Of a stretch of DNA of 64,000 nt, positions 20,904 to 45,377 are shown in pieces (positions within the stretch are counted from its first letter, which is position 1; each line of letters opens with the position of its first letter). Position numbers and translations under genes: made by a program. A model generated the notes under the pieces. It did not search any database and was not told the DNA's origin. It was given only the letters and a program-made list of their open reading frames with translations. The stretch is from a virus, in the IMG/VR virus record IMGVR_UViG_3300037225_000932, positions 1 to 64,000 of that record. One strand, written 5' to 3'.

Positions 20904-21659
20904 ATGGCTAAACACTTTTATGGATGGAAAAGAGATTTACCTGATCAAAAAGACTTCTTATTTTTAATAGATAAAACGGTAAAAATTCCTATACAAGTAG
21001 ACTTAAGACCTTCATGTCCAGCGGTTTACGACCAGGGTCAACTTGGAGCGTGCGTGTCAAATGCTGTGGCTGGAGCTATGGAATATGATGCTACTAAAGA
21101 ACAGTTATCAACAGCAAATACTATGCCGTCAAGATTATTTATTTATTATAATGGAAGAGTTATTGAAGGAACGGTTAATAGTGATAGTGGATTAACCATA
21201 AGAGATGGAATGAAATCTGTAGCTCAATATGGAGAATGTATGGCTCCATCATGGCCTTATATAATAGCTAATTTTGAGAAAAAACCAACAGCAAAATGTT
21301 ACGCAGAAGCTAAAGCTCATTTGCCAACGGTTTATTCTAGTGTAGCGCAAAATCTTACTACAATGAAATCTTGTTTAGCTTCTGGATACCCAATCGTAAT
21401 AGGTATTTCTGTTTATGACTCTTTTGAATCGGATAGTGTAGCTAAAACAGGCATAGTTCCTCTTCCAAAGAAAAATGAAAGTATTTTAGGAGGTCATGCT
21501 CTTTTGATAGTTGGTTATGATGATTCTAAGAGTTGGTTTATAGTTAGAAATAGTTGGGGAGCAAATTGGGGCGTTAAAGGATATTGTTTTATGCCTTATA
21601 ATTATTTAACAAATAAAAATTTGGCTTCAGATTTTTGGACAGTTAAAACGGTGTCATAA
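20904..21659 (+). CDS. papain-family (C1A) cysteine peptidase
   Basis: DQGQLGAC, GGHALLIVGY, RNSWG catalytic motifs. Confidence 0.92.
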   Translation: MAKHFYGWKRDLPDQKDFLFLIDKTVKIPIQVDLRPSCPAVYDQGQLGACVSNAVAGAMEYDATKEQLSTANTMPSRLFIYYNGRVIEGTVNSDSGLTIRDGMKSVAQYGECMAPSWPYIIANFEKKPTAKCYAEAKAHLPTVYSSVAQNLTTMKSCLASGYPIVIGISVYDSFESDSVAKTGIVPLPKKNESILGGHALLIVGYDDSKSWFIVRNSWGANWGVKGYCFMPYNYLTNKNLASDFWTVKTVS

Positions 21660-21796
21660 TATATGATATATTTAAAAGAACAACCAGAACAGCCTAAGAA
21701 ATATCGTATAAAAACGGGATAGATATTTTATTAAAATAGTTTCAATAAAAAACATCCCATTAAAAAGGATGTTATTTTATTTTGCGAAAAAAAAAT

Positions 21797-22267
21797 ATGA
21801 ATGATGTATTTCATGTAAAAGTTGAACCAGTTATTGACTATAAAATGAGAGGATTATGTTGTAAACCTTATCCTTTACATAAAAATGGATGCCCAAATTT
21901 TCATAAGAAAAAAGGATGTCCACCAGATGCCCCAAAATTTGAAGATATAATAGATAGCAATAAACCAATATACGCAATATATAATAAGTTCAATTTTGAA
22001 GAACATACATTAAAGATGAAAGATAAACATCCAGAATGGACGAAAAGACAAGTAGAATGTTGTCTATACTGGCAACCAAAGGCAAGGAAATTACTTAAAG
22101 AAAAAATAAAAAAGTTTTTGGAAATTTTCCCGGATATGAATATAATAAGTTGTCCAGAGGCTTGTGGAGTAAATATAACAGAAACTATGAAAAATGCCGG
22201 TATAATACTAGAGTGGCCTCCTCAAAAATATACTTATCAAATAGTGTTTGCGGTTTATGAAAAATAA
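21797..22267 (+). CDS. DUF2284-like metal-binding protein
   Basis: CPNF..GCPP..CC..PEACGVNI; ATG at 21797 preferred. Confidence 0.6.
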   Translation: MNDVFHVKVEPVIDYKMRGLCCKPYPLHKNGCPNFHKKKGCPPDAPKFEDIIDSNKPIYAIYNKFNFEEHTLKMKDKHPEWTKRQVECCLYWQPKARKLLKEKIKKFLEIFPDMNIISCPEACGVNITETMKNAGIILEWPPQKYTYQIVFAVYEK

Positions 22268-22273
22268 ATAATA

Positions 22274-22359
22274 CGGAGTTTAGCTCAGTTTGGTCAGAGC
22301 GTCCGGCCTGGGACCGGAAGGCAATATTGTTTACACAGGTTCGAATCCTGTAACTCCGA
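22274..22359 (+). tRNA. tRNA-Pro(UGG) with a long variable arm
   Basis: CGGAGTT/AACTCCG acceptor, TCCGG-CCTGGGA-CCGGA anticodon arm, GGTTCGAATCC T-arm; 16-nt variable region; no encoded CCA. Confidence 0.85.
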
Positions 22360-22363
22360 TTGA

Positions 22364-23830
22364 ATGAAAATTTTACTTGTATATCCTCAATTAAATAATA
22401 TAATTTCTATTGGATTTTTAGAACCTTTAGTTTTAGAAATATTTTCTGCTATAGCTAAACAAGAAAAATGTGAAACAGAAATATTAGATTTACGTATAGA
22501 AAAAAATGGTCTTAAAACATTATATAAGAAAAAATATATTCCTGACCTAGTGGCTTTATCTACTCACGGATATGCTGAAATAAAAAATATCAACAAAATA
22601 GCAAAACAGTGTAAATCTTATTGGAAAAATGCTAAAGTTATTGTTGGAGGAGGGCAATGTGCTCTTTCTCCTTGGTTTTTTGATAAAAACAATATAGATC
22701 ATTTAGTTCAAGGTCCAGGAGAAAATATATGGAGAAATATTTGTAAAAATGGATTAAATAGTAAAGAATATTTACTCAAAGATGATAATTTGCCAAAAGA
22801 ATATAGTTATCCATTACCTGATAGAGAAATAACTCTTAAATATAAGAAATATTATAAAGAAATGTCTGGACTGCCAGCAACTATGATGCCTATGACACAG
22901 GGATGTCCTTTTAAGTGTTCTTTTTGTGCAGTTTGGAAGGCATCTTTAGGATTGTATAGAAAGAGACCAATTAAAGAAATAATAGCAGAACTTAAAACTA
23001 TAAAAGATCCTGTAGTATATATAAGTGATGATAACACACTTGCTGATTCTGAATTTTCTAAAAAAATAATAGAAGAAATAAAATTAGCAGGAATAAAAAA
23101 AATGTATGTAGCTTATGGAAGAGCAGACCATATTTGTAAACATCCAGAGAATATTAAATTGTGGTCAGAAATAGGTTTGAAAAGTATAATTGTTGGAGTA
23201 GAAGCTGTTGTAGATTCTAATTTAGAAAAGTTTAATAAAAAAACATCGGTAGATGAAAACAGTAGAGCACTAAATATATTAAGAGACAATAATATAACTC
23301 CAATTGCTCATTTTATTTTAACTCCTGAAATGAAAAGAGAAGATTATGATAAGATTTACGATTTTATTTGTGAACATAAATTGTTTTTTCCAATAATTGT
23401 TCCGCTGACACCCTTACCGGGAACAACAGACTATGATTATTATCACGAAAAAGGATTAATATTAACTGACCAACTAGATTATTATACTTTTAATTATAAT
23501 GTAATACAACCAAAATATATGACTATAAAAGAGTCAGTTAAAGAATATGAAAGATTATGGAAAAAAATATGGTCATTTGAGAGATGGTTAAATAATAGAC
23601 AATGCTCTTTTTATGTTTTCTTAAAAAGTTTTATACAAATAAGATTATATTTATGGAGAATAGGTCTAAAACGAAAAAAAATGATAATAAATTTGCCAAA
23701 TAGTGTAGTAGAAGCACGGCTTCCTCTGAAGGAGTCAGTCCCGGGGCAGAACCAGGTTTGGCAGTTAAATATAGATGAGGTAAAATATGTCACAAAAACA
23801 AAAAATGAAAGAAATGAGAAAACTCTTTAG
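22364..23830 (+). CDS. cobalamin-binding radical SAM enzyme
   Basis: B12-binding N-domain (VGGGQ), GCPFKCSFC CxxxCxxC, DDN, TPLPGT; true end probably 23684 (TGA TAA TAA one base out of frame after an A8 run). Confidence 0.85.
   Translation: MKILLVYPQLNNIISIGFLEPLVLEIFSAIAKQEKCETEILDLRIEKNGLKTLYKKKYIPDLVALSTHGYAEIKNINKIAKQCKSYWKNAKVIVGGGQCALSPWFFDKNNIDHLVQGPGENIWRNICKNGLNSKEYLLKDDNLPKEYSYPLPDREITLKYKKYYKEMSGLPATMMPMTQGCPFKCSFCAVWKASLGLYRKRPIKEIIAELKTIKDPVVYISDDNTLADSEFSKKIIEEIKLAGIKKMYVAYGRADHICKHPENIKLWSEIGLKSIIVGVEAVVDSNLEKFNKKTSVDENSRALNILRDNNITPIAHFILTPEMKREDYDKIYDFICEHKLFFPIIVPLTPLPGTTDYDYYHEKGLILTDQLDYYTFNYNVIQPKYMTIKESVKEYERLWKKIWSFERWLNNRQCSFYVFLKSFIQIRLYLWRIGLKRKKMIINLPNSVVEARLPLKESVPGQNQVWQLNIDEVKYVTKTKNERNEKTL
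23694..23764 (+). tRNA. tRNA-Gln(CUG)
   Basis: TGCCAAA/TTTGGCA acceptor + G73, GCTTC-CTCTGAA-GGAGT anticodon arm; atypical T-loop GGCAGAA. Confidence 0.7.
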
Positions 23831-24074
23831 AGAAGGCGTCTTTAAGAGAGATGGCTTTAAATGTGTTTTCTGTGAAGAAAAGAGAAATTTAGACGCCCAC
23901 CATATTATTAACAGGAAAAAAATAATATTTGATGGATATACGATTTTTAATGGGATAACACTTTGTCCAAAACATCACTGGGATGCTGAAGATGGAATTT
24001 TGAGTGAAGATTTTCTTTTTGCAAAAATAAATTCAAGTAAAGAAAAAGCAGTAAAGGATTTGCTAAACAAATAA
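23787..24074 (+). CDS. small HNH endonuclease
   Basis: RDGFKCVFC..LDAHHII..NGITLCPKHH. Confidence 0.85.
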   Translation: MSQKQKMKEMRKLFREGVFKRDGFKCVFCEEKRNLDAHHIINRKKIIFDGYTIFNGITLCPKHHWDAEDGILSEDFLFAKINSSKEKAVKDLLNK

Positions 24075-24140
24075 AATAAGTATATAATAATATATTGGGC
24101 AGTAGAGTAACGGCTATCTCACCTGACTTTTTGTGACTTT

Positions 24141-24211
24141 TGCCCTTTAGTGTAATAGTAGCACTAGACCCTTTGGAGGTTTCGGTCTCCGTTCAAATCG
24201 GAGAAGGGCAG
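24141..24211 (+). tRNA. tRNA-Gln(UUG), nested inside the split tRNA
   Basis: TGCCCTT/AAGGGCA + G73, AGACC-CTTTGGA-GGTTT, CTCCG-TTCAAAT-CGGAG. Confidence 0.85.
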
Positions 24212-24315
24212 TTTGAATAGAACTTATTGTTTGGTAGTTTAATAAAATAAAAGAGGAATGTAATACCAATGATAGTATACATATTATGGCTCACTAATAT
24301 TTTGGAGAACATAAT

Positions 24316-25173
24316 ATGGATATTTCAAGAAAGAAAAGTTTAATTTGGAAAATATCAAAAGAACAATTTGTAGAGATAATAAAAAATGGAACATCTTTTA
24401 TGGAAATATTATCTCATTTTGGATTAAAAAATAAAGGTAATAATCATAAAACATTAAAAGATAGAATAAATTATGAAAAATTAGACATTTCTCATATATA
24501 TGAGAATATGCGTAGAAGAAATAAAGAAATATGTAGTAATATGAGATCTGCTATTAAAAAACCTATTGAATTATTTCTCGTAGAACATTGTAAGGTAAAT
24601 AGAACTGCATTAAAGAAAAGATTGATAAGAGAAAAAATATTAAAAGAAGAATGTGAAAAATGTGGAATAAAAAATGAATGGAAAGGAAATTATCTATCTT
24701 TAGTATTAGATCATAAAAATGGAGTTAGTGATGATTATAGACTTGATAATTTAAGATTATTATGCCCAAACTGTAATAGTCAAACGGATACTTTTACTGG
24801 CAGAAATAGAAAAGATAAAAGGACAAAAAGAAAATGTATAAAATGTGGAAAAGACATATGTTCAGTAAATAGATCTGGATTTTGTTTTATGTGCTATCAT
24901 TTAGATTTATGTAATTTTAATAAAAACTATACTGAAGACAATATTATATATAAAAAAATAGATTTAGAAAATAAAAAAATAAATAAAAGAAAAACAATAT
25001 GGCCAACAAAAGAAGTTTTAGAAAAACTGATAACAGAAAAACCTTTTACAATAATAGGAAAAGATTTTGGAGTATCAGGTAGTGCTATAAAAAAATGGTG
25101 TAAAAAATTAGGAGTAGAAATACCAAAAAATAGACGAGGATATTGGACAAAAATAAAGTATAATAAAATTTAA
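24316..25173 (+). CDS. HNH homing endonuclease with Zn ribbon and C-terminal HTH
   Basis: CEKCG..LVLDHKNG..NLRLLCPNCNSQT; CIKCG..CFMC; IGKDFGVSGSAIKKWCKKLG. Confidence 0.9.
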   Translation: MDISRKKSLIWKISKEQFVEIIKNGTSFMEILSHFGLKNKGNNHKTLKDRINYEKLDISHIYENMRRRNKEICSNMRSAIKKPIELFLVEHCKVNRTALKKRLIREKILKEECEKCGIKNEWKGNYLSLVLDHKNGVSDDYRLDNLRLLCPNCNSQTDTFTGRNRKDKRTKRKCIKCGKDICSVNRSGFCFMCYHLDLCNFNKNYTEDNIIYKKIDLENKKINKRKTIWPTKEVLEKLITEKPFTIIGKDFGVSGSAIKKWCKKLGVEIPKNRRGYWTKIKYNKI

Positions 25174-25221
25174 ACGGATCAGAAAATTAGTGGTTCGATC
25201 CCACTTTGCCCAGTTCTATGG

Positions 25222-25458
25222 TTGAAATTCAATATAAACAATGTCGTCTTAAAAAAAGGCAATCAACTAATTATTTGCTGGATACCTAAAAGTTTTTGCA
25301 CAAAAGAAAAATATTTACAACTAAAAATCAATGATAAGTGGGAAAATGGGTGGAAAGTAGAAAGTATAGGAGATAGAGTTTTATCAGAAAGTGTTTTAGT
25401 TTTTCAGTTTCAGGACTATAAAAGAATTGGTGGATCGTTAAAAAATCCAATTAAATAA
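25222..25458 (+). CDS. hypothetical protein
   Basis: 78-aa ORF between tRNAs; start uncertain. Confidence 0.45.
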   Translation: MKFNINNVVLKKGNQLIICWIPKSFCTKEKYLQLKINDKWENGWKVESIGDRVLSESVLVFQFQDYKRIGGSLKNPIK

Positions 25459-25462
25459 AGAT

Positions 25463-25534
25463 GGCCCTATAGTTCATGTAATAGAATTCGAGACCTTCAA
25501 TCTCAGGAACCGGATGTAAGTCCCGGTAGGGCTA
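25463..25534 (+). tRNA. tRNA-Glu(UUC)
   Basis: GGCCCTA/TAGGGCT, GAGA-CCTTCAA-TCTC; atypical T-loop TGTAAGT and C33. Confidence 0.7.
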
Positions 25535-25566
25535 TTTAAGTTTCTTACTTTGTTCTTTGATATTTT

Positions 25567-25940
25567 GGGCCGATATAGGCACTCGACTGGTAAAGATGAT
25601 ACTAAAGTGCAATCCGAAGTTTAACTACTTGGCTTCGTTAAAAAAGAGTTAAAAAATAACTGCTAATACTGAATTAGCTCTTGCCGCCTAATATGGCGAC
25701 ACTTTCTTTTGATAATCTCTAATAGTCAAAAAGAAAGAAAACATTAGAGATAACCTTTTTCCCTATTAAGGCAAATTGTAGGGCGTTATTTATACGAAAT
25801 TAAAAGTAGTTTTATAATATACTTAATTATGAAATGAAAACCTAAAGTATATTTTTGACAATTTTAGAAAAAATTGCTATAATTGTAGTATCTTTAGTTT
25901 GTTTTTATTCAGGACGGGGGTTCAATTCCCCCTCGGTCCA
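25567..25940 (+). ncRNA. ssrA: tmRNA, tag peptide (A)ANTELALAA*
   Basis: GGGCCGA/TCGGTCC acceptor with G3-U70, TCGAC..GGAC ends, GGGGGTTCAATTCCCCC T-arm; resume context ATAACT-GCT at 25662, stop 25689-25691. Confidence 0.92.
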
Positions 25941-25951
25941 TTAGGATTTTT

Positions 25952-26023
25952 GTCCCTGTATTTTATGAATTAAAATCTCTGGTTCTCAGCCAGAAAAACC
26001 GAGTGAAAGTCTCGGCAGGGATA
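25952..26023 (+). tRNA. tRNA-Glu(CUC)
   Basis: GTCCCTG/CAGGGAT, TCTGG-TTCTCAG-CCAGA, CCGAG-TGAAAGT-CTCGG. Confidence 0.7.
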
Positions 26024-26063
26024 TTTTTTGTAAAGTGCCTTTCTTTTAACATATCATAGGGAT

Positions 26064-26675
26064 ATGGTTGATCCAACAAAAATTACAGATTATAATAGAA
26101 ATAATTACGATTTAGAAGAATTGATTTTATTTTGTGTAGCTGTTGCTGGAAAAACAGCAAAAGTCATATCTAAAAAAATAGATATATTTTTACAAGACAT
26201 AAAATTTTTTTTAGGCAAAAATAATATAACTCCTTTTGAAATGATAAAATTATTATCTCAAGATAAACTTGATCTCTTTTTAAGAAAACACAAATTAGGC
26301 AAATATAAAACTTTAGCGGATTGCTATTACAAATTAGCACATTCCGGTTTAGATTTAAGAAAATGTAATATAGACGATTTAATGACGTTTTCTGGAATTG
26401 GTCCTAAAACTTCAAGATTTTTCATTTTATCAACTCGACCAAAAGCTAAAGTAGCAGTATTAGATACTCATATCTTAAAATATATTTCTAAAAATTCATC
26501 TTTAGAAAATGTTCCACTACGCACTCCCTCTGCTTCTAAAAAATATAAAGAATTAGAAGACTGGTTTTTAATACACTGTGAAAAATTGAATGTTGATGTA
26601 GCAGAATACGACTTAAAAATATGGAACCAATCGTCTGTTAGGTCTGGATTTTTTGGAGTAAAACATGATTATTGA
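26064..26675 (+). CDS. HhH DNA glycosylase (8-oxoguanine glycosylase Ogg2-like)
   Basis: SGIGPKTSRFFIL helix-hairpin-helix, AVLDTHIL, KYKELE, YDLKIW. Confidence 0.75.
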   Translation: MVDPTKITDYNRNNYDLEELILFCVAVAGKTAKVISKKIDIFLQDIKFFLGKNNITPFEMIKLLSQDKLDLFLRKHKLGKYKTLADCYYKLAHSGLDLRKCNIDDLMTFSGIGPKTSRFFILSTRPKAKVAVLDTHILKYISKNSSLENVPLRTPSASKKYKELEDWFLIHCEKLNVDVAEYDLKIWNQSSVRSGFFGVKHDY

Positions 26676-26716
26676 TTGTTGTGAATTAAAAATCTCCAAA
26701 TCTCGATAAATAGATA

Positions 26717-27469
26717 TTGAGATTGGAGAAAAATATGGAAAATCAAAATATAAATGACATCTTATTAGACGAAAATGTAAAAAAGGTTGCTACAGAAATT
26801 TTATCATCTTTTAATGAAGATAATAGAGAAAACTCTATTGATCACGATTTTAGTCTAAAAAATGGAAAAATGATTAGTAAAGAAAGTAATACTTTTTTTA
26901 CTTTTACACCTAAAAAAGATACACTTTTAAATTTAATTGCACAAAAAATAAGAGATATAGAAATAACAGAAAAGTTAACAAAAGAAGTAAAAACCTTTGA
27001 GGATAAAGTTAAAAAATATATAAACGATAATATGTCATATTTTTTTGCGCAAAAAATTAGAGATGTTATATTAAAAGCAAATAGTAATACTGGACCAGTT
27101 CCTATAAGTGTTTTGTTTCCATTAAAAACAATAAAAGTTATTTCTTTTGAATTAAATATGTCTTTCGATCCAGAAAAAGATGGAGGATATACTATAACTA
27201 TTCAAAAGCAAGTCCCAAAAGGAACAAAATATGTTCCTTCAAAGTCGGTAGCAAACGATATGATACAAACAAGATTATCTACTGAAAAGGATTATGATCA
27301 AATAATAAAAGAAAAAAAAGAAGCAGGAGATATTGATTATAAATATATTACCGGATACTATAAAAAATATTATGAAGAAGAATATAGTTTAAGTTTATAT
27401 GTTGATTATTCTCCTATTCCTCAAAATGAATTAGTAGAATATATTAAAAATAGCACAAAATCATCTTGA
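26717..27469 (+). CDS. hypothetical protein
   Basis: 250-aa ORF; likely start MENQN after SD ggaga. Confidence 0.7.
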   Translation: MRLEKNMENQNINDILLDENVKKVATEILSSFNEDNRENSIDHDFSLKNGKMISKESNTFFTFTPKKDTLLNLIAQKIRDIEITEKLTKEVKTFEDKVKKYINDNMSYFFAQKIRDVILKANSNTGPVPISVLFPLKTIKVISFELNMSFDPEKDGGYTITIQKQVPKGTKYVPSKSVANDMIQTRLSTEKDYDQIIKEKKEAGDIDYKYITGYYKKYYEEEYSLSLYVDYSPIPQNELVEYIKNSTKSS

Positions 27470-45234: not shown

Positions 45235-45377
45235 GCTTCTGTAACTCAACGGCCAAGATCGATTAAAAATATTCTAAATATTAGAGCCAAAGTCGCAATA
45301 GGATGCGAGAAGATCTCTAAAATCTTTAATGTATGGGTTCGACTCCCATTTGGCTCACTTGAACTCAGACAGAAGCA
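45235..45377 (+). pseudogene. outer tRNA shell enclosing the suppressor tRNA
   Basis: GCTTCTG (45235-41)/CAGAAGC (45370-76) perfect acceptor stem + A; TA-ACTC-AACGGCCA D-arm start; TGAACTCAGA T-arm remnant. Confidence 0.5.
45284..45357 (+). tRNA. amber suppressor tRNA (anticodon CUA)
   Basis: GAGCCAA/TTGGCTC + A73; TCGC/GCGA D-stem; AAGAT-CT CTA AA-ATCTT (anticodon 45317-45319); ATGGG-TTCGACT-CCCAT. Confidence 0.85.

Follow-up and report, generated by a model that had tools for sequence, protein, structure and literature searches.

Free-standing homing endonucleases are already known from the tRNA gene clusters of phages. SegB of phage T4, a GIY-YIG enzyme encoded in such a cluster, cuts the tRNA genes of related phages and is inherited together with the flanking tRNA genes by co-conversion (PMC2330249). 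The HNH enzymes F-TflI/II/IV of phage T5 are also encoded by free-standing genes in a tRNA gene cluster (Akulenko et al. 2004, as cited in PMC2330249). The locus described here lies in the first 64 kb (64,000 nucleotides, hereafter the window) of IMG/VR virus record IMGVR_UViG_3300037225_000932, which is 173 kb long and 88% complete according to CheckV. At this locus, a tRNA-Gln(UUG) gene (the outer gene) is split in its anticodon loop by an insert that carries an intact tRNA-Gln(UUG) gene (the inner gene) and a gene for an HNH nuclease. We consider it probable that a nuclease cassette with a spare tRNA-Gln gene broke its tRNA-Gln target and was copied in by break repair, which would have left the outer gene dead, with no splicing involved. 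Like the genes of SegB and the F-Tfl enzymes, this is a selfish nuclease gene in a phage tRNA array, and a unit of tRNA-Gln, spacer and HNH gene that is conserved between the window and the closest relative of its nuclease would fit co-transfer. Unlike those genes, the window nuclease gene lies inside a tRNA anticodon and is accompanied by a complete tRNA of the same specificity. SegB differs further from the window protein in that it has another nuclease fold and recognises a T-loop motif.

Mobile group I introns with HNH or other homing-endonuclease genes occur in the anticodon loops of bacterial tRNA genes, such as those for cyanobacterial tRNA-Leu(UAA) and Azoarcus tRNA-Ile. The window insert shares with them the position in the anticodon loop, the homing-endonuclease open reading frame (ORF) and a disrupted site that would be protected from its own nuclease. 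However, the insert lacks both a ribozyme core and the space for one, and it does not end in G; the cost of insertion would be met by a spare gene rather than by splicing. Elements that carry an integrase, such as prophages and islands, enter tRNA genes with a copy of the displaced 3' end of the tRNA. Here, too, a mobile element appears to have landed in a tRNA gene and to have brought sequence that preserves tRNA function. In contrast to those elements, the window insert has neither an integrase nor att-type repeats, supplies a whole tRNA gene, interrupts the anticodon instead of the 3' part, and would have entered by break repair.

The usual view is that a homing endonuclease can persist inside a gene only where the product is freed of it by an intron or intein. 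In the present case, the cost of gene breakage appears to be paid by a spare copy of the broken gene. Our search of the open-access literature gave no paper on intron-less nuclease genes in phage tRNA anticodon loops, or on cassettes carrying a spare tRNA.

The split tRNA-Gln gene and its insert

An initial annotation of this stretch, made from the letters alone, had described a tRNA-Gln(UUG) in two joinable halves, a short repeat at the start of the insert, a nested tRNA-Gln(UUG) that is intact and divergent in sequence, and an HNH gene whose end lies 2 nt before the 3' half. All of these were borne out. When the two outer halves (coordinates in Table 1) are joined, ARAGORN calls a tRNA-Gln(UUG) with seven acceptor pairs, one of them G-T, and with U1-A72 and G73. 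The intron mode of ARAGORN did not recover the outer tRNA, and a custom join scan was written instead. The scan paired left ends up to 400 nt upstream of the HNH ORF with right ends between 30 nt ahead of its stop and 150 nt past it, giving 72,000 pairs. Essentially one tRNA body was found, at 24095..25214, in 139 of these joins, and two further joins gave it with a one-base shift. Repeated at 40 random places of the phage's own genome, the scan gave no tRNA in 2.88 million joins. Thus, the split tRNA is real, far beyond chance.

The insertion point is in the anticodon loop, between U35 and G36 of the outer tRNA-Gln(UUG). The initial annotation had pointed out that other junctions would yield other anticodons, and two of these, ACG and TTT, were indeed recovered in the join scan. 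The split CTTT/GGA is the sole junction that gives a Gln loop, and the loop CTTTGGA is common to the outer and inner tRNAs. The assignment to Gln, which had been favoured from the start, is further supported by an unrelated, GC-rich and intact tRNA-Gln gene from a metagenome (L121), because its anticodon arm exactly matches the joined arm, including the C27.A43 mismatch and G37. The left junction lies inside a T run and can be placed only to within a few bases. At this junction, the direct repeat TGACTTTT is found at 24124-24131 and 24134-24141, 10 nt apart. Close 8-mer repeats of this kind have a background of about 9e-4 per base in the phage's own genome, so that TGACTTTT, which was noticed post hoc, is mildly unusual. 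As a target-site duplication it is ruled out, since both copies are on the same side of the insert.

The insert is 1045 nt long. Its intact tRNA-Gln(UUG) is called by ARAGORN and, at 24141-24211, by Rfam with 54.5 bits; it shares 56% identity with the joined outer tRNA, and its minimum-energy fold is the cloverleaf. We presume that the inner tRNA-Gln is a working replacement. The spacer that follows contains an inverted repeat, TTGGTA (24231-24236) and TACCAA (24264-24269), which is conserved in the related locus L033 described below, and a ribosome-binding site, GGAG, at 24304-24307 ahead of the HNH gene. The 285-aa protein matches Pfam PF01844 (25.1 bits against a cut-off of 21.4) and phrog_10822 (E 1e-37, residues 12-263). 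In an alignment of 30 sequences, including the window protein, C113, C116, D132, H133, N135, N145, C150 and C153 are invariant; the window protein keeps every family-invariant residue, with the D-H...N...N motif and the four zinc cysteines. By this motif, it is a predicted HNH (His-Me finger) homing endonuclease. The TAA stop of its gene is followed by AC and then directly by the outer 3' half. The insert bases that belong neither to the ORF nor to the tRNA come to 9 + 103 + 2 = 114 nt.

A promoter-like motif that the initial annotation had placed inside the insert was not confirmed. A sigma-70 scan of the plus strand gave no site there; it did give one just upstream of the outer 5' half. Judged from its position, this putative promoter would now transcribe the outer 5' half and, behind it, the inner tRNA and the HNH gene.

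Table 1. Features of the split tRNA-Gln locus and of the surrounding tRNA cluster (positions in the window)
Feature	Position	Strand	Basis or remark
tRNA-Pro(UGG)	22274-22359		In the cluster around the locus
Radical-SAM gene and 95-aa HNH-domain gene	Between tRNA-Pro and the split locus		
Putative sigma-70-like promoter, TTGCTA-17-TATAAT	24060..24088	+	Consensus scan, 10/12 matches
Outer tRNA-Gln(UUG), 5' half	24096..24130	+	Acceptor strand, D arm, 5' strand of anticodon stem, loop C32-U35
Insert leader, 9 nt	24131..24139	+	Makes direct repeat TGACTTTT with the end of the 5' half
Inner intact tRNA-Gln(UUG)	24140..24212	+	ARAGORN; Rfam
Spacer between inner tRNA and HNH gene, 103 nt	24213..24315	+	Inverted repeat and ribosome-binding site
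HNH homing-endonuclease gene (predicted), 285 aa	24316..25173	+	Pfam PF01844, phrog_10822
Insert tail, AC	25174..25175	+	Between TAA stop and 3' half
Outer tRNA-Gln, 3' half	25176..25213	+	G36-A38, 3' strand of anticodon stem, variable loop, T arm, acceptor strand, G73
78-aa ORF	Between the split locus and the odd tRNA		
Odd tRNA	25463-25534		Rfam
Bacterial-type tmRNA	25567-25943		Tag ANTELALAA; inside the tRNA cluster
tRNA-Glu	25951-26024		After the tmRNA

Relatives of the nuclease in phage tRNA clusters

We found 394 homologues of the HNH protein. A profile search of IMG/VR kept 80 loci with 68 unique ORFs, of which 56 directly adjoin a tRNA gene and 34 adjoin tRNA-Gln. A tRNA-Gln lies within 100 nt upstream of 27 of the unique homologues, as in the window insert, and within 30 nt downstream of 13. 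The share of tRNA-Gln among all tRNAs at these loci is 17%. The HNH gene has tRNA-Gln on both flanks at L040, L042, L066, L074, L089 and L112. Homologues from isolated phages, found by tblastn, also sit in tRNA arrays, and those from Enterococcus and T4-like phages have been labelled 'F-TflIV-like' by GenBank annotators. Most homologues are free-standing between tRNA genes, whereas the window copy is inside a tRNA gene. The HNH clade is tied to tRNA genes, above all to tRNA-Gln, and its members are sometimes found inside them.

In many of the free-standing homologues (L043, L048, L054, L056, L064-L066 and others), the HNH frame extends 10 nt into the downstream tRNA gene. At L065:1986-1995, the HNH stop is the tRNA's own U8-A9-G10, read as TAG. 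The join scan, when run on dense arrays (L019, L029), yielded false bodies with one end in common with an intact neighbour, and these were filtered out. Candidate split tRNAs at L053, L073 and L077/L082 passed the filter, but on inspection they have the look of long-variable-arm artefacts and were rejected.

The closest homologue (L032-L034) has an HNH protein of 57% identity and the same order as the window, namely tRNA-Gln(UUG), a 98-nt spacer and the HNH gene. In L033, the spacer aligns with the window spacer, inverted repeat included, and the tRNA-Gln is homologous to the window inner tRNA and is preceded by a similar T-rich leader. The HNH stop of L033 merges into an orphan tRNA 3' half, which has G36-A38, the stem, the T arm and the acceptor strand and lies at the same place as in the window; no 5' partner of this half was found in the available L033 DNA. 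From these two loci, the tRNA-Gln, the spacer and the HNH gene appear to be inherited as a block. The position of the cassette is syntenic between the window and L033, because the next downstream tRNA in L033 (2949-3021; Glu(CUC) according to ARAGORN) is an ortholog of the odd tRNA at 25463-25534 of the window, with about 70% identity. The downstream ORFs of the two show no homology, and this odd tRNA-Glu is the single marker of the synteny. L033 also has, at 1177-1263, an 87-nt tRNA with a long variable arm and the anticodon CUU (Lys), a body that is unusual for that anticodon.

A second IMG/VR phage, L065, has in order a Gln-type 5' half, an HNH gene, an intact tRNA-Gln and a matching 3' half. 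The 3' half contains a triplicated 10-nt stretch, so that the outer gene is plainly broken. Part of the window spacer recurs after the outer 5' half of L065.

Insertions of the same kind are polymorphic among cultured phages. Enterococcus phages of the genus Schiekvirus that are 94-100% identical around the sites either have or lack a homologue inside their tRNA-Gln, tRNA-Lys and tRNA-Pro genes. In phages 113 and Bop, the homologue hegA (35% identity) is inside the tRNA-Gln gene, where it replaces 14 nt of the anticodon arm; the same gene is intact in about 30 relatives. No tRNA-Gln is annotated across the 24-kb tRNA region of Bop, a cultured lytic phage (ON125307.1, 36000-60000). This region has about 26 tRNA genes and a tmRNA, with hegA occupying the anticodon-arm site of the tRNA-Gln. 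In PEf771, a homologue lies cleanly inside tRNA-Lys(CUU), at 35/36 or 36/37, and T36-A37-A38 of the tRNA form its stop codon. The homologue of iF6 stands in place of 26 nt of tRNA-Pro. Thus, tRNA sequence was lost in two of the three Enterococcus insertions. Homologues of the crAss-like phage cr53_1 and of Dulem virus 42 are likewise located between tRNA halves. As a separate observation, Enterococcus phage 113 has a full-length ROOL RNA (L020:4532-5118; Rfam, 263.8 bits) in its tRNA region, beside two HNH genes.

The initial annotation had looked to relatives with an uninterrupted tRNA at this locus, and such relatives were found for the hegA phages, in the roughly 30 intact tRNA-Gln genes just mentioned, but not for the window phage. 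Seven assemblies of the window phage from different samples are 100% identical or one base apart over the region, and all of them contain the insert. Exact-pattern scans of IMG/VR for either outer half gave no match, nor did a scan of JGI metagenomes for the 5' half. A scan of JGI metagenomes for the joined anticodon arm had two results, a coincidental match within coding sequence and the unrelated tRNA-Gln of L121, neither of which is an empty-site allele. The neighbouring radical-SAM gene led to no relatives in IMG/VR. Its best homologues have at most 47% identity over the full length (one partial match has 52%), those that are named are bacterial, and no phage synteny was gained from them. 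Exact-protein look-ups led back to this phage alone, in other samples and at 100% identity, with no variation for a selection test on the halves.

Origin of the nested arrangement

We propose that the HNH nuclease would cut the tRNA-Gln genes of related phages that do not have it, and that break repair would then copy the nuclease gene and the neighbouring donor tRNA-Gln gene into the cut. With donor and recipient too diverged for a clean replacement, the copied segment would land between the halves of the target. The outer gene would be left as a dead relic, which would also hide the target site, and the inner tRNA would take over Gln decoding. The former tRNA promoter would transcribe the cassette, and RNA splicing would play no part. 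The nested topology itself indicates that the outer gene received a segment with both the inner tRNA and the nuclease gene, and the T run at the left junction is common to the cassette leader, which fits microhomology joining.

One suggestion of the initial annotation was a homing element whose insertion inactivates the target but which provides an isoacceptor in exchange. This idea is favoured by the clade bound to tRNA-Gln, by the conserved unit in L033 and by the polymorphism among the Enterococcus phages; for the window element itself, we infer that it homes and that its insertion is neutral. We argue that the outer genes at such loci are probably not maintained, on the basis of the decayed or missing halves in L065, L033, 113/Bop and iF6. 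The outer gene of the window is most likely dead and unspliced.

Several observations weigh against this proposal. The outer halves in the window are flawless, and the junction restores exactly CTTTGGA, which fits a recent insertion and also selection for a rejoined tRNA. A phage with an HNH protein of only 57% identity has its cassette at the syntenic position, and if the insertion were that old, one would expect an outer gene free of selection to have decayed. The phage genome also encodes an Rnl1-type RNA ligase (172150-172743, minus strand). Furthermore, target and inner tRNA do not differ in the anticodon loop, so that any immunity of the inner tRNA gene would have to lie in its differing stems. 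Finally, because no insert-free allele of the window phage was found, the homing of its element has to be deduced from the relatives. The flawless halves, the shared position and the ligase fit recent or repeated insertion into orthologous targets.

Alternatively, tandem tRNA-Gln genes and an adjacent free-standing HNH gene may have been shuffled by illegitimate recombination or by a repair accident, in which case the inner tRNA never travelled with the nuclease. Many relatives do have tRNA-Gln on both sides of the HNH gene, and the nested and orphan-half layouts differ among the window, L033 and L065, which suggests messy repair rather than an element with fixed ends. Nevertheless, we consider such a local rearrangement unlikely. 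Even then, the nesting could arise only if a segment with both the HNH gene and the inner tRNA came to lie within the outer gene, the order and sequence of tRNA, spacer and HNH gene are conserved with L033, and the insertion point in the anticodon is the same as that of the clean insertion in PEf771.

A second working tRNA-Gln would result if the insert were a ribozyme-free tRNA intron. The outer halves would pair, RNase P and 3' processing would free the inner tRNA, and after trimming the Rnl1-type ligase, with a kinase-phosphatase, would seal U35 to G36. T4 Rnl1 repairs breaks in tRNA anticodon loops, and the ligase gene of this phage gives permissive support. The perfectly kept halves with their clean junction and the syntenic position of the cassette in a distant relative also favour this possibility, and the promoter-like site upstream of the 5' half would put both halves on one transcript. 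However, the scheme requires exact cuts at 24130/24131 and 25175/25176, and we know of no bacterial or phage nuclease that would make them. RNase P would leave 9-10 surplus bases on the 5' half. The phage genome contains no match to a tRNA splicing endonuclease (PF01974) or to RtcB, and the minimum-energy fold of a mini-precursor, a single prediction and weak evidence, shows no bulge-helix-bulge motif of the archaeal type; the tmRNA of the phage is of the bacterial type. The relatives speak against an intron as well, since L033 has no 5' half, the 3' half of L065 is corrupted, and the homologous insertions in 113/Bop and iF6 deleted tRNA sequence. In addition, a second identical isoacceptor would add little beside the inner tRNA. 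We therefore regard such an intron as very unlikely. Continued production of the outer tRNA-Gln, from halves that the acceptor, D and anticodon stems keep together and the Rnl1-type ligase seals, would amount to protein-dependent, ribozyme-free tRNA splicing in a bacterial virus, and it seems to us highly improbable.

The initial annotation had seen no group I or group II core, and an Rfam covariance-model search over 21500-27000 likewise gave no match to an intron of either group at E <= 10. As to hallmarks of group II introns, beyond the lack of an Rfam match, the sole ORF of the insert matches HNH families only. Seven related loci (the Enterococcus insertions, cr53_1, Dulem virus 42, L033 and L065) were likewise free of intron matches at E <= 0.1. 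We find it hardly credible that the insert is a cryptic group I intron, with a core that overlaps the HNH frame or is too divergent for Rfam and with the nested tRNA as a peripheral insertion. The 5' exon does end in U (24130), as in group I introns, but at the only junction with a Gln anticodon loop the last base of the insert is C (25175), where group I introns need G, and only the 103-nt spacer, the 9-nt leader and the 2-nt tail lie outside the ORF and the tRNA.

If insertion of a nuclease cassette with a spare tRNA is general, such cassettes would overwrite and turn over phage tRNA genes, and they would account for the pseudo-tRNAs and orphan tRNA halves that phage tRNA arrays contain. The HNH clade, with half of its members adjoining tRNA-Gln, and the pairs of cultured Enterococcus phages of which one has the gene and the other lacks it provide a handle on homing and target specificity. 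There is also a consequence for annotation, in that split genes escape tRNA finders and the nucleases carry only the label 'HNH endonuclease'.

Surroundings of the locus

The split tRNA-Gln locus is surrounded by a cluster of tRNA genes and a tmRNA gene (Table 1), in a window with a G+C content of 27%. At 86 nt, the tRNA-Pro(UGG) of the cluster contains CAATATTGTTTACA, about 14 additional bases that separate the variable region from the T stem; Rfam nonetheless scores it at 59.6 bits. The 95-aa HNH-domain protein is encoded at 23787-24074, just upstream of the outer tRNA, and its best match is the N-terminal HNH part of phrog_24030, which is annotated as RNA ligase (E 3.6e-15). The odd tRNA downstream of the locus scores 35.9 bits with Rfam and was missed by ARAGORN; its T loop is TGTAAGT and its anticodon loop CCTTCAA.

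Phage tRNAs with the suppressor-type anticodons CUA and UUA are found at 45284-45358 of the window and at 134482-134555 (minus strand) of the phage's own genome. Of the 54 long ORFs in the window, only 3 end with TAG, a hint of partial reassignment of stop codons.

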